DNA of 64,000 nt, taken from sequence record MK573636, one strand, 5' to 3'. The translations under genes and the position numbers were made by a program. The notes beneath the pieces are model-generated. The model saw only the letters and a list, made by a program, of their open reading frames with translations. It did no database searches and had not been told where the DNA came from. The stretch is from Escherichia phage vB_EcoM_PHB13. Shown here piece after piece: positions 1 through 3,680 of the stretch (positions are counted from its first letter, which is position 1; the number at the start of each line of letters is the position of its first letter).

Positions 1-171
1 AGCGCATCATGGCTTCCTGTGCAAGAAAATAGCGATATCTCAAGACCTGCAACTGTATTCGACCGTGGCGTTGTCTTTATCGATATTGACGAGACAGTAG
101 CAAAACTGCGTAAGAAAGCAATCAACAAGAAAAAGGTGATGTGGGATGAAAGAATATTTGAAACTGTTGCG
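1..171 (+). CDS. 3' end of upstream gene (partial; possibly dihydrofolate reductase by T4 synteny)
   Basis: Open frame enters window and stops at 169-171, overlapping td start by 26 nt. Identity not verifiable from 56 residues. Confidence 0.3.
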
Positions 172-1366
172 TGATGTTCTTGATAATGGCTGGCCTCGTG
201 AAGACCGCACGGGGGTAGGTACGCTCTCTAAATTCGGCGCAGAGATGCGAATTGATTTAAGCAAGGGTTTCCCATTACTGACCACTAAAAAGATGGCTAC
301 AGCCTCTGTAATTGGCGAATTGCTATGGTTTATGGAAGGGTCACTTGACCGCCGTCGCTTACAGGAAATTACACGCGGTAAGTTTGACGAAGAAGCCTTT
401 GACATTTGGCGCGGTAATTGTCTTGATATGAAAGAAAAGAATCCTTTGCGATTCAATGGTTATAATGTTGGCAATATGTATGGTATGGCATGGCGACGCA
501 AACCGATTCATCCACACGGTGAGATCAAAATTAAGCGCGTTAAGAGCAAATATACACATACATTTAAACACCCGTGGGTAGAAGACTTTACGCCAACCAA
601 TGAAACAGAAGACCGTTTATGTGCTATCTGGCGTGGTATGATTTATGAAGAGTTTGATTGTATTCTGGTAGCAGACCACTGGAAGACTCAATCTAATTTT
701 GTTAATGATGCATATTGCTTGTGGGGATTCCAGGAATGGGTAGATAGTGGTTATTTCGATTATCTGCTTGATAGTGATTATCTGGGTGGCGACATTTTAG
801 CACCGGATACCACGATGTTTGTTAGTATGGACGTAGACACATCAAGCACTAAAGACGATGAAGAATATGTCTATCGCCCGAAGATTTGGGAAGACCAGTT
901 ACAAAACGTGATTGAACAAATTAAAAACAATCCAACGGATCGCCGGATCATTATTGACTCATGGAACGTACAAGGAACACATAATGCTGTATTAGGTGTA
1001 TGTCATCCTTTCGTGCAATTCTATGTCAATGAAGGTAAACTGTCTTGTATGTGGTTTCAGCGAAGCGTAGACAGCTTTTTGGGCTTGCCCTTTAACGTCG
1101 CCAGCTATGCGCTGTTAACTCACATCATAGCGAAAATGTGTGATCTTGAGGTAGGAGAACTGATTTTCTCTGGTGGAGATACTCACATTTACAAAAACCA
1201 CTTTAATCAAGTTATGGAACAGTTAAGCCGTGTTCCGTTTGATAAACCAACAATTGAGTTGCCGGAATTTAAATCTTTAGATGAGATATTGACAAAGACT
1301 CCGAAAGACTTTAAAATTCACAACTATCAAAGCCATCCAGCGATCCCCGCTCAAATGGCAGTATAA
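146..1366 (+). CDS. td: thymidylate synthase (ThyA family) with ~120-aa internal insertion
   Basis: ThyA motifs: N-terminal RTGVGT, catalytic Cys in GVCHPFVQFYV, QRSVDSFLGLPFNVASYALL, GDTHIYKNH. 406 aa versus ~265-286 typical; upstream of nrdA as in T4. Confidence 0.85.
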   Translation: MKEYLKLLRDVLDNGWPREDRTGVGTLSKFGAEMRIDLSKGFPLLTTKKMATASVIGELLWFMEGSLDRRRLQEITRGKFDEEAFDIWRGNCLDMKEKNPLRFNGYNVGNMYGMAWRRKPIHPHGEIKIKRVKSKYTHTFKHPWVEDFTPTNETEDRLCAIWRGMIYEEFDCILVADHWKTQSNFVNDAYCLWGFQEWVDSGYFDYLLDSDYLGGDILAPDTTMFVSMDVDTSSTKDDEEYVYRPKIWEDQLQNVIEQIKNNPTDRRIIIDSWNVQGTHNAVLGVCHPFVQFYVNEGKLSCMWFQRSVDSFLGLPFNVASYALLTHIIAKMCDLEVGELIFSGGDTHIYKNHFNQVMEQLSRVPFDKPTIELPEFKSLDEILTKTPKDFKIHNYQSHPAIPAQMAV

Positions 1367-1372
1367 ACAAAG

Positions 1373-1388
1373 GGGGGCGAAAGCCCCC
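1373..1388 (+). other. GC stem-loop (GGGGGC-GAAA-GCCCCC) after td, no U-tract
   Basis: Perfect 6-bp stem read directly; no T-run follows, so likely RNA structure or processing site rather than strong terminator. Confidence 0.4.
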
Positions 1389-1436
1389 AATATGGAGGAT
1401 AAAACTTGTTCCTGCTAAAATATGAAGTGAGGTAAT

Positions 1437-3680
1437 ATGATTAAAAATGTTGTTAAGTCTTCCGGTCTGACTGTTCCGTTTGAAAAAGAAAAAGTAATGA
1501 AAATTCTGGAAGCGGCAGCCGAAGGTCATAACGTTGATCCATATGAATTGTTTGATATGGTTGAACCACTTCTGACAGAAGGTATGTCTACCAATGATAT
1601 CCAGAAAGTATTGATTAAGGTCGCCGCAGATAACATTACTGTAGAAACGCCTGATTATCAATATGTAGCAAGTAACCTTGCAATGTTCGCTCTTCGTAAA
1701 TCAGTATACGGTCAATTCCAACCGATTGATTTTTATAGCCATATTGAGCGTAATATTGCAACCGGAAAATATGATCGTGAAATTCTGCAAAAGTATTCCC
1801 GTGAAGAAGTGGAATATCTGGAGAAATTCATCGACCATAAACTTGATTTTAAAATGACCTATGCTGGTGCGATGCAGTTAAAAGAGAAATATCTTGTTCA
1901 GGATCGCAGCACTAAGAAAATCATTGAAACACCGCAATTTGCGTATATGCTGATCGGTATGTGCTTGCATCAAGAAGAGACAGAAAATCGACTTGAACAT
2001 GTGATTGATTTTTATAATGCTGTTGCGAATAAGCAAATCTCTCTGCCTACTCCGATTATGGCAGGTGTGCGTACCCCAACACGCCAATTTAGTTCGTGTG
2101 TGGTGATTGAAAGTGATGACTCATTGCAGGGCATCAACGAAACAGCAAATGCAATCATCAAGTATATTAGCAAGCGTGCTGGTATCGGTATCAACGCTGG
2201 CATGATTCGCGCGGAAGGATCTAAGATCGGGCATGGTGAAGTTCGTCATACTGGCGTTATCCCATTCTGGAAACATTTTCAGACTGCCGTTAAGTCATGC
2301 TCACAAGGCGGTATTCGTGGCGGGGCGGCGACTCTCTATTACCCAATGTGGCATTTAGAGTTTGAAAGTCTTATTGTGTTGAAGAACAATAAGGGGGTGG
2401 AAGATAACCGCATTCGTCATCTTGATTACGGCGTACAGATTAATAACCTGATGGTAGAGCGATTCCTTAAACGGGATTACATTACTCTGTTTAGTCCAGA
2501 TGTTGCAGGTGGCTTGTTGTGGGATCTGTACTTCCGAGATGAGGAAGGTTTCCGCCAGCTTTACGAAAAACTGGAAAAAGATCCGAGTGTTCGTAAAACT
2601 CGTGTTAAAGCCGAAGACCTGTTTTTAGCGGTGGCAATTGAACGTTTTAACACTGGTCGAATCTATCCAGCGTTCACAGACAACATGAACAATCACGGGG
2701 CGTTTATTCGTAATGTAGCACCGATTAAACAATCCAACCTGTGTTGTGAAATTGCTCTGCCGACAAAACCGATGGGTCGTGATGATTCAGAGATCAGTCT
2801 ATGCACTTTGGCAGCATATGTTTTAGGAAACTTTGATATCGAAAATATGGAAGAAGTAGAACGCATTGCTATGGTTATGGTGCGTGCACTTGACAACCTG
2901 TTAGATTATCAGGATTATCCTGTAGAACAAGCTCTGACAGCCAAAAAACGTCGCTCTCTGGGTGTTGGCGTGACTAACTTTGCATCGTATCTCGCGGATA
3001 ATTTCTTCACATATGAAGACGCTAACGAGTTTACGCATAAAACGTTTGAACGCTTGCAATATGCTCTGATTAAGGCTAGTGTGCAACTAGCAAAAGAGAA
3101 GGGTACTTGCGAACTGATGCACGAAACACGTTATGGTCGCGGTGAACTGCCTATCGACTGGTACAAAAAGACAGTAGATGAACTGGTTGATCCGGTGTAT
3201 GAGATGGATTGGGAAGAACTGCGCGAAGACCTGAAAAAATATGGCATTCGTAACAGTACGCTTTCGGCTCTGATGCCTTGTGAGTCGTCTTCTCAGGTAT
3301 CTAACAGCACAAACGGTATTGAACCGCCTCGCGGGATTGTATCGGTTAAAGGATCAAAGGAAGGACAATTTAATCAGGTTATTCCGAACGTAGAGAATAA
3401 TGCTGATGTTATTGACCTGCTTTGGACACTGATCAAGAAAGGTAACAAGCCTTATCTGACACTGGCAGCGATTATGCAGAAGTTTGTAGATCAGGCGATT
3501 AGTTCCAATACATCCTATGATCCAAGCACTTATAAGACTGGTAAAGTCGATATTGCTGATGTGTTAGATGATATGTTGTTCGCTCAACATTACGGTCTGA
3601 AAACCCTGTATTATGCGAACGTTCGCGACGGTGCAGATGGTACGGAAGACGCTAGCGAGTGCTCATCTTGCAAGCTGTAA
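1437..3680 (+). CDS. nrdA: ribonucleotide reductase class Ia large subunit
   Basis: 747 aa; active-site NLCCEIALPT motif, C-terminal CSSC redox pair; strong Shine-Dalgarno GAGGT; T4 synteny td-nrdA-nrdB. Confidence 0.93.
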   Translation: MIKNVVKSSGLTVPFEKEKVMKILEAAAEGHNVDPYELFDMVEPLLTEGMSTNDIQKVLIKVAADNITVETPDYQYVASNLAMFALRKSVYGQFQPIDFYSHIERNIATGKYDREILQKYSREEVEYLEKFIDHKLDFKMTYAGAMQLKEKYLVQDRSTKKIIETPQFAYMLIGMCLHQEETENRLEHVIDFYNAVANKQISLPTPIMAGVRTPTRQFSSCVVIESDDSLQGINETANAIIKYISKRAGIGINAGMIRAEGSKIGHGEVRHTGVIPFWKHFQTAVKSCSQGGIRGGAATLYYPMWHLEFESLIVLKNNKGVEDNRIRHLDYGVQINNLMVERFLKRDYITLFSPDVAGGLLWDLYFRDEEGFRQLYEKLEKDPSVRKTRVKAEDLFLAVAIERFNTGRIYPAFTDNMNNHGAFIRNVAPIKQSNLCCEIALPTKPMGRDDSEISLCTLAAYVLGNFDIENMEEVERIAMVMVRALDNLLDYQDYPVEQALTAKKRRSLGVGVTNFASYLADNFFTYEDANEFTHKTFERLQYALIKASVQLAKEKGTCELMHETRYGRGELPIDWYKKTVDELVDPVYEMDWEELREDLKKYGIRNSTLSALMPCESSSQVSNSTNGIEPPRGIVSVKGSKEGQFNQVIPNVENNADVIDLLWTLIKKGNKPYLTLAAIMQKFVDQAISSNTSYDPSTYKTGKVDIADVLDDMLFAQHYGLKTLYYANVRDGADGTEDASECSSCKL

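Follow-up and report, generated by a model that had tools for sequence, protein, structure and literature searches.

The window examined here, a stretch of 64,000 nt from Escherichia phage vB_EcoM_PHB13 (sequence record MK573636), belongs to a T4-type coliphage of the genus Krischvirus that resembles RB49 and Phi1; the region around its thymidylate synthase gene, td, is matched at 80–98% identity by 58 phage records, the best of which are phiS, Phi1, E26 and RB49. The gene is the only open reading frame (ORF) of the thymidylate synthase family in the window and is directly followed by nrdA (1437..3680), as in T4-like phages, in which td lies immediately upstream of nrdA. Its product, Td, carries ~122 extra residues (about 118–249) between R117 of the WRRKP segment and D250 of DQL, whereas the loop after the WR strand counts 5 residues in T4 Td and ~10 in E. 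coli ThyA. The initial annotation had placed about 120 extra residues between the WRxKP region and the DRRII motif, at 479–900 (residues 112–252), and a count from conserved landmarks gives the same result. It is this insert, the truncated and degenerate remnant (a fossil) of an endonuclease-like module, that is described here. The gene and its parts are the following:

146..1366, plus strand: td/thyA coding sequence, 406 amino acids (aa) and a stop codon, from the ORF list and the matches to PF00303 and TIGR03284.

146..496, plus strand: N-terminal core, residues 1–117, including R21, E58, W88 and Y112, from the alignment with E. coli ThyA, the invariant columns of alignment A1 and the ratio of non-synonymous to synonymous substitution rates (dN/dS).

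497..541, plus strand: N-terminal junction RKPIHPHGEIKIKRV, residues 118–132, with strands predicted at 118–120 and 126–130 in the AlphaFold2 (AF2) model.

542..613, plus strand: short linker running from basic to acidic, residues 133–156, in place of the deleted N-terminal beta subdomain of the module, from alignments A1 and A2.

614..754, plus strand: retained helical core, residues 157–203, with a W..M helix, a W..F.NF..D helix and LWGFQEWVD, from the profile match and the AF2 helices.

764..838, plus strand: relic of a beta-beta-alpha finger, LLDSDYLGGDILAPDTTMFVSMDVD, residues 207–231, from the conservation table and a comparison of secondary structure between the window model and a long-insert model.

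839..892, plus strand: acidic linker, TSSTKDDEE, and then the strand of the C-terminal junction, YVYRPKIWE (residues 241–249), from the AF2 model and alignments A1 and A2.

893..1363, plus strand: C-terminal core, residues 250–406, from R266/R267 to MAV, from the identity to E. coli ThyA, the invariant columns and dN/dS.

PF00303 spans the whole of Td (E 1.7e-84; 283.6 bits against a cut-off of 24.3), with a profile alignment that is interrupted, and TIGR03284, the NCBIfam equivalog model for ThyA, is passed with 283.2 bits against a cut-off of 108.35. Residues 1–82 and 250–406 align with residues 1–82 and 110–264 of E. coli ThyA, the latter segment with ~50% identity, and residues 250–406 align also with residues 120–286 of T4 Td; solved ThyA structures are 42–46% identical to the Td core. 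The residues of E. coli ThyA that were checked are C146, R21, R126', R127', R166, E58, Y94, H147, D169, N177 and D205/H207/Y209, and the full catalytic set, whose motifs had already been recognized in the initial annotation, is kept in Td as R21, E58, Y112, R266/R267, C286, H287, R306, S307, D309, N317, D345, H347 and Y349. These residues are invariant in alignment A1, with the exception of R267, which is nearly invariant (90% or more). Td belongs to the ThyA fold and shares with E. coli ThyA and T4 Td, besides the fold and the catalytic residues, the C-terminal closure motif, present as MAV. Furthermore, an expansion of 18 residues (~90–108) lies between W88 and Y112, where the small domain usually varies. 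E. coli Asn177, a residue that specifies deoxyuridine monophosphate (dUMP) and in whose place the hydroxymethylases of deoxycytidine monophosphate (dCMP) carry Asp, corresponds to Asn317 in Td. In its predicted structure Td is much closer to ThyA than to the dCMP and CMP hydroxymethylases. As a whole, td is predicted to encode a functional ThyA-type enzyme, converting dUMP and methylene-tetrahydrofolate into deoxythymidine monophosphate (dTMP) and dihydrofolate.

The insert is common to all 58 related phage genomes, and in every one of them the frame is open across both junctions; the td length variants found in Krischvirus differ by whole codons. Nor is the insert an artefact: the same continuous frame and the whole-codon variants, found in all of the Krischvirus genomes, exclude a frameshift. 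The AF2 model predicts that the whole insert is folded, with a predicted local distance difference test (pLDDT) score of 82–98, helices at residues 153–169, 177–189 and 195–200 and strands at both junctions (118–130 and 241–250), so that the structure prediction proposed at the outset has returned a structured domain. The motif of the N-terminal junction, RKPIHPHGEIKIKRV, is kept in all the insert-bearing relatives of the window's clade, and at the opposite end the acidic linker and the C-terminal junction (839..892) lead back into the enzyme core.

Used alone as a query, the insert matched nothing in Pfam or among the PDB sequences and gave no match in a word-indexed protein search, in which an alignment of inserts found 9 proteins only; in PHROGs it gave only a marginal match to phrog_2081, labelled 'HNH endonuclease' (E 0.037). 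The search with full-length Td retrieved phage thymidylate synthases of 401–613 aa with insertions at the same position. The long inserts (245–284 aa) can be aligned with the window insert (alignment A1) and match phrog_2081, phrog_953 and phrog_374, all labelled 'HNH endonuclease', at E 1.7e-33, 1e-25 and 2e-20, respectively. A tblastn search with one long insert matched 1440 phage records and also the Krischvirus td (E 2e-11), and among the matches listed most are free-standing ORFs annotated as HNH endonuclease, homing endonuclease or hypothetical protein. Furthermore, a profile built exclusively from free-standing members, namely 75 proteins that are not thymidylate synthases, matches Td at residues ~143–240 (30.8 bits, E 6.5e-9) and nothing else among the 580 ORFs of the window; therefore, the homology of the insert to the family is direct as well as transitive. 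From these sequence comparisons, the window insert is homologous to a very large phage family labelled 'HNH endonuclease' by PHROGs.

The size of this family is considerable: an exhaustive profile search collected 34,554 cluster representatives at E<=1e-3, of which 8,644 remain at E<=1e-10, and the best 149 comprise 74 thymidylate synthases, split at profile positions ~121–125, that is in the same loop, and 75 other proteins. The free-standing members measure ~170–300 aa, many of them consisting of just the module (170–190 aa), and their genes sit between primase and DNA polymerase, next to ribonucleotide reductase or beside td/frd. Two such genes of PHROGs 2081/953/374, Vibrio phage D391 gp38 (174 aa) and Vibrio phage K408 gp176, the latter beside td, encode a module homologous to the window insert; these 'HNH endonuclease' genes have their own start and stop, whereas in the window the module is a degenerate stretch within Td. 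In K408 (L001 2387–3208), the free-standing module gene lies two genes upstream of a td-frd pair without insert, a position that fits a family targeting the td region. As for the copies embedded in the enzyme, the ThyA of the Klebsiella jumbo phage KP13-7/phiKp_21 (517 aa) and many metagenomic ones of 520–590 aa have the insertion at the same site as Td and share with it the junction motifs PHG...IKR and V.RP..W.DQ and a homologous central module. However, these long-insert enzymes carry, in frame and with no splicing apparatus, the complete module of 245–284 aa with all the family-conserved residues, while the window copy is without the flanking subdomains and the putative catalytic residues. 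Ten metagenomic module-bearing thymidylate synthases (P0138, P0143, P0162, P0184, P0213, P0214, P0218, P0225, P0230 and P0277) have a second insertion, of ~10–40 residues, in another loop (profile positions ~172–176).

Modelled with AF2 (pLDDT 89.9), a long insert is made of an N-terminal beta subdomain, a helical core, a strand-loop-strand-helix unit and a small C-terminal subdomain. In the strand-loop-strand-helix unit an invariant D-K-D ends strand 1, an invariant Tyr-Ser lies in the loop and a conserved Asn is on the helix; in a canonical HNH enzyme the catalytic His is at the end of strand 1, and the family has D-K-D where D-H would be expected. The arrangement of D-K-D, Tyr and Asn resembles the finger layout of PacI, a His-Me finger enzyme in which Tyr replaces His (PMC5714182), but the structural similarity of the module to PacI is weak, no sequence similarity is detectable and the Cys4 zinc sites of PacI are not in the module. 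The window relic, in turn, differs from PacI also in the loss of the Tyr and of the helix. Among the BFVD matches of the module there are proteins named homing endonucleases. No nuclease domain was found by the Pfam scan of the 75 members that are not thymidylate synthases, in which the only domain detected is an I-HmuI NUMOD-like DNA-binding domain (7/75); the Pfam HNH models (PF01844, PF13392 and others) match neither the long inserts, nor the free-standing examples, nor the 75 members. NCBIfam contains no model for the module, and the module profile has no match among the PDB sequences.

The degree of decay of the window copy can be read from 25 conserved positions, defined as those kept in >=85% of the free-standing members. 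Each of them is kept at a frequency of 0.69–1.0 in the long embedded copies, while the window copy keeps 10 (W98, M101, Y106, V123, W127, F133, D136, D156, D158 and T172) and has lost the other 15 (F48, T51, G52, D69, G77, G79, G82, R104, C105, Y113F, K157S, Y168L, S169A, C173T and N181D). A complete module, composed of the N-terminal beta subdomain with GVGY, the W..M..RCY helix, DKD, YS..TC and the Asn helix, is not found in it. In particular, the N-terminal beta subdomain is wholly gone together with the G.GY motif, family positions 48–82 being either gaps or substituted, and the C-terminal subdomain is deleted as well. In the helical core, family residues W98, M101, V123, W127, F133 and D136 are retained, and the RC segment, with R104 and C105, and the loop that follows it are deleted. 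In the finger relic, LLDSDYLGGDILAPDTTMFVSMDVD, both strands are kept, DKD has become DSD (Lys to Ser210), the loop YS has become LA (Leu218-Ala219) and TC has become TT (Cys173 to Thr); the Asn-bearing helix is lost, with Asn changed to Asp and a predicted coil at residues 228–240 in its place. Furthermore, the segment that remains is strongly acidic, with a net charge of –12 and an isoelectric point of 4.05, compared with a family median charge of 0 to +1, which argues against DNA binding by the window insert. At window ~656–661, between D171 and I173, a four-codon indel (SEYN) is present or absent among Krischviruses, exactly where the RCY...Y segment of the module was lost, so that in-frame length changes within the relic are tolerated.

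Intermediate deletion forms also exist, of 193–194 aa (without the N-terminal subdomain only) and of 163 aa. The short form (127–140 aa) is common to other T4-like phages, with cores 59–72% and inserts 40–52% identical, one of these relatives having the gene in a frd-td-nrdA-nrdB context on a 169 kb contig. The occurrence of the short form in diverged T4-like phages indicates that the truncation is old and that what remained has persisted stably. Recent acquisition of the segment from a foreign source was also considered and was rejected, the GC content of the insert being equal to that of its flanks.

In nine Krischvirus genes, dN/dS is 0.22 in the insert, 0.03 in the N-terminal core and 0.13 in the C-terminal core. 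Between the window and RB49, a single pair, the insert shows 10 non-synonymous and 9 synonymous changes (binomial P = 0.005 under neutrality). Both values indicate that the insert is translated and constrained, in agreement with the claim of the initial annotation that the ORF is continuous and that the insertion is at the protein level rather than an intron. The gene itself is not homogeneous: in the comparison with KFS-EC (L004) and ELT3 (L005), the C-terminal core (893–1363) has dS of ~0.9 and dN of 0.136, while the N-terminal core and the insert have dS of 0.07–0.2, and this jump marks td as a recombination mosaic with a breakpoint that coincides with the 3' end of the insert or lies close to it.

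The distribution of the module among thymidylate synthases is informative on its mobility. Insert-bearing enzymes are found on at least three core backbones, namely the Krischvirus-like clade, the clade of P0018 and P0019, and P0127, which has a differently built small domain with its own long expansion before the conserved Tyr. One case is that of P0019 (552 aa), the core of which is 92% identical to that of P0042 (299 aa), an enzyme without insert, and only 50–66% identical to insert-bearing enzymes outside its own clade (83% to P0018, of the same clade). The two genes are found in syntenic phage contigs, in the order 238-aa gene, 98-aa gene, dihydrofolate reductase (DHFR), then thymidylate synthase, and at the DNA level ~850 bp in P0019 stand in place of ~92 bp in P0042, between flanks that are 77–81% identical. 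The length of the loop is multimodal, with 5 aa in 53 sequences, 10–11 aa in 6, 28–33 aa in 41 and >=100 aa in 29, out of 129 sequences that are 128 thymidylate synthases and one free-standing module protein pooled with them by mistake, to which the sole value of 108 aa belongs. From this pattern we infer that the module entered td by homing or by homing-like gene conversion.

The explanation that we favor, to which we give a probability of roughly 70%, is that Td is a ThyA with a decayed homing-endonuclease-like relic, located in the surface loop from the WR strand to the DQL helix, which entered as a mobile element and has been retained by the constraint of the enzyme. The 'new accessory domain' of the initial annotation holds in that the insert is predicted to be a folded domain, but this would be the decayed remnant of a homing-endonuclease-like module and not a newly evolved catalytic accessory. 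In the mechanism that we propose, the intact module would be a PacI-like nuclease targeting the empty loop-coding site of td, and its presence there would destroy the presumed empty target site. Having entered td as a site-specific mobile element, the module would have been tolerated unspliced since the loop is permissive. In the lineage that led to Krischvirus and some other T4-like phages, both terminal subdomains and the residues with a putative role in catalysis were then lost; such decay after fixation is what the homing-cycle model describes. The relic would no longer cut or bind DNA, and the remnant would be a compact acidic domain of ~125 residues, translated as part of Td. Its purifying selection would be due most likely to the harm that a misfolded or imprecisely deleted insert would cause to an essential enzyme, and a secondary, co-opted role, as an acidic docking or decoy domain, is possible.

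Several observations weigh against this explanation. No tested nuclease was found among the members of the module family; the family is without the canonical HNH histidine and without a match to nuclease models of Pfam or NCBIfam, and the endonuclease label comes from PHROG and GenBank annotation and from gene context. As for mobility, the flanks of P0019 and P0042 are only ~77–81% identical, so that the presence/absence event is not recent, and the same-site distribution could come from ordinary homologous recombination between td genes. Finally, the counts behind dN/dS are small (~10 non-synonymous and ~10 synonymous changes per pair), and purifying selection on the relic is also what would be expected from a real new function.

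A more far-reaching version of the same explanation, which we put forward only tentatively, is that the full-length modules are active site-specific endonucleases living unspliced and in frame in the loop of thymidylate synthase, and that the Krischvirus insert is their fossil end-stage, which may have been put to a new use as an acidic domain for interaction or as a decoy. They would then be a class of selfish element for which neither intron nor intein is required, the passenger being tolerated by the host enzyme.

It is rather unlikely, in our opinion, that the insert serves at present as an accessory domain with a function of its own, derived by co-option of an endonuclease-type module and giving Td a new property, such as docking into the phage complex of deoxynucleotide synthesis or of replication, the binding of a basic partner, or an effect as acidic decoy towards related endonucleases. 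The high confidence of the predicted fold, the dN/dS of 0.22, the size remaining steady at 127–140 aa across T4-like phages with cores ~60% identical, and the acquisition of a distinctive net charge of –12 would all agree with such a role. However, no direct evidence of any partner or activity was found, dN/dS in the insert is ~2–7 times that of the enzyme cores, in-frame indels such as SEYN are tolerated inside it, and the need to avoid misfolding of an essential enzyme explains the constraint simply.

Still more doubtful is the view that the module was never a nuclease or a homing element, being instead a DNA-binding or structural domain spread by ordinary shuffling and recombination. The missing HNH histidine, the lack of Pfam nuclease matches, the weak structural match to PacI and the I-HmuI NUMOD-like DNA-binding domain as the only one that co-occurs (7/75 proteins) speak in its favor, but it has to account for the many module-only members of 170–190 aa in locations typical of free-standing homing endonuclease genes, for a D-K-D, Tyr and Asn layout corresponding to a His-Me finger with Tyr for His, and for the occupation of the same loop on three different enzyme backbones.

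Two further alternatives are very improbable. That Td is a relative of the dUMP/dCMP hydroxymethylases and the phage DNA contains modified pyrimidines, as the initial annotation had considered, is suggested by nothing but the unusual length and the activity of thymidylate synthase homologues as hydroxymethylases in other phages, and it is contradicted by the ThyA equivalog cut-off that Td passes, by Asn317 (not Asp) with the full catalytic set, by a structure and a kinship nearer to ThyA than to the hydroxymethylases, and by the canonical DNA reported for RB49 (PMC8056088). That the insert is an intein, or a self-splicing intron whose ORF reads through, and is removed before the mature enzyme forms, is equally improbable. 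In its favor, the size of the insert resembles that of a mini-intein, group I introns occur in the td genes of T4 and of Bacillus phages, and inteins in ThyX genes. However, window positions 1–1600 gave no match to any Rfam family even at E<=1, and an intron, in contrast with the group I intron of T4 td, was rejected also on the continuous ORF and on the protein-level purifying selection in the insert. Likewise, the junctions, reading WRRKPIHPHG... on one side and ...YRPKIWE followed by DQL on the other, have no Cys, Ser or Thr as first residue, no terminal His-Asn and no downstream nucleophile, on the basis of which an intein was rejected; the HN dipeptide is absent from the insert, the Pfam scan gave no intein family and the sequence is homologous to a family that is not of inteins. 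The open frame in 58 genomes, the whole-codon length variants and the strands predicted at both junctions (118–120, 126–130, 241–245 and 248–250) point in the same direction.

Homing endonuclease genes are thought to persist in essential genes only by means of intron or intein splicing, or else as free-standing genes between host genes. With I-TevI, with the inteins and with the insertions in mitochondrial rps3 and cox2, the td insert has in common that a selfish, endonuclease-type element lies in a conserved gene and that its presence varies among close relatives. I-TevI, in the td of T4, occupies the same host gene, but it is spliced out at the RNA level and lies at a different site; inteins are in frame like the window insert, but are spliced at the protein level; free-standing homing endonuclease genes are a close precedent for the module too. 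In the window td there is neither RNA nor protein splicing, and the mature enzyme keeps the element as a domain inserted in a loop. In-frame and unspliced endonuclease insertions are known in mitochondrial rps3. An in-frame insertion of this type has been described in mitochondrial cox2 (PMC5374615). These mitochondrial cases, being unspliced, are the nearest precedent, but they are LAGLIDADG-type elements and reside in different hosts. In the literature, our coverage of which was incomplete, we found no description of the td insertion of RB49 and Krischvirus nor of endonuclease modules embedded in thymidylate synthase, and in databases the insert-bearing genes are annotated simply as thymidylate synthase.

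For the window itself, the feature amounts to a degenerate remnant in an enzyme that is ordinary in all else, and the wider phenomenon is the more interesting part: a homologous module is left in the mature enzyme, always in the same permissive loop, and this is seen on several backbones and in 74 or more distinct sequence clusters. If our explanation is true, this would be a third way for a homing endonuclease to hide inside a gene. The series from the intact (245–284 aa) to the partly deleted (~163–194 aa) and to the fossil form (~130 aa) offers a natural record of the decay and entrenchment of a passenger, and the thymidylate synthase loop, open to insertions of 130–280 residues, could be useful in protein engineering. 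Moreover, attention is drawn to a very large family that neither Pfam nor NCBIfam contains and whose members may be PacI-like nucleases lacking the canonical histidine. Concerning annotation, the Krischvirus td should be regarded as an ordinary dTMP synthase, with no hint of modified DNA.

Some minor observations regard the surroundings of td. Window 19–174, on the plus strand, is the 3' end of a small ORF upstream of td, which overlaps the start of the latter by 29 nt and which in related phages has 89 aa and is annotated as hypothetical. DHFR is not the immediate upstream neighbor of the window td, unlike in the relatives P0006, P0019 and P0042. Downstream, at 1372–1388, right after the td stop codon, there is a G+C-rich hairpin (GGGGGG-CGAAAG-CCCCC) with no T-run behind it, and in phage G37-3 the corresponding position carries the annotation of a putative terminator. 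In the Krischvirus vB_EcoM_011D4 (L006 1576–1833), a DNA methylase gene follows td as a local insertion, whereas in the others nrdA follows directly.

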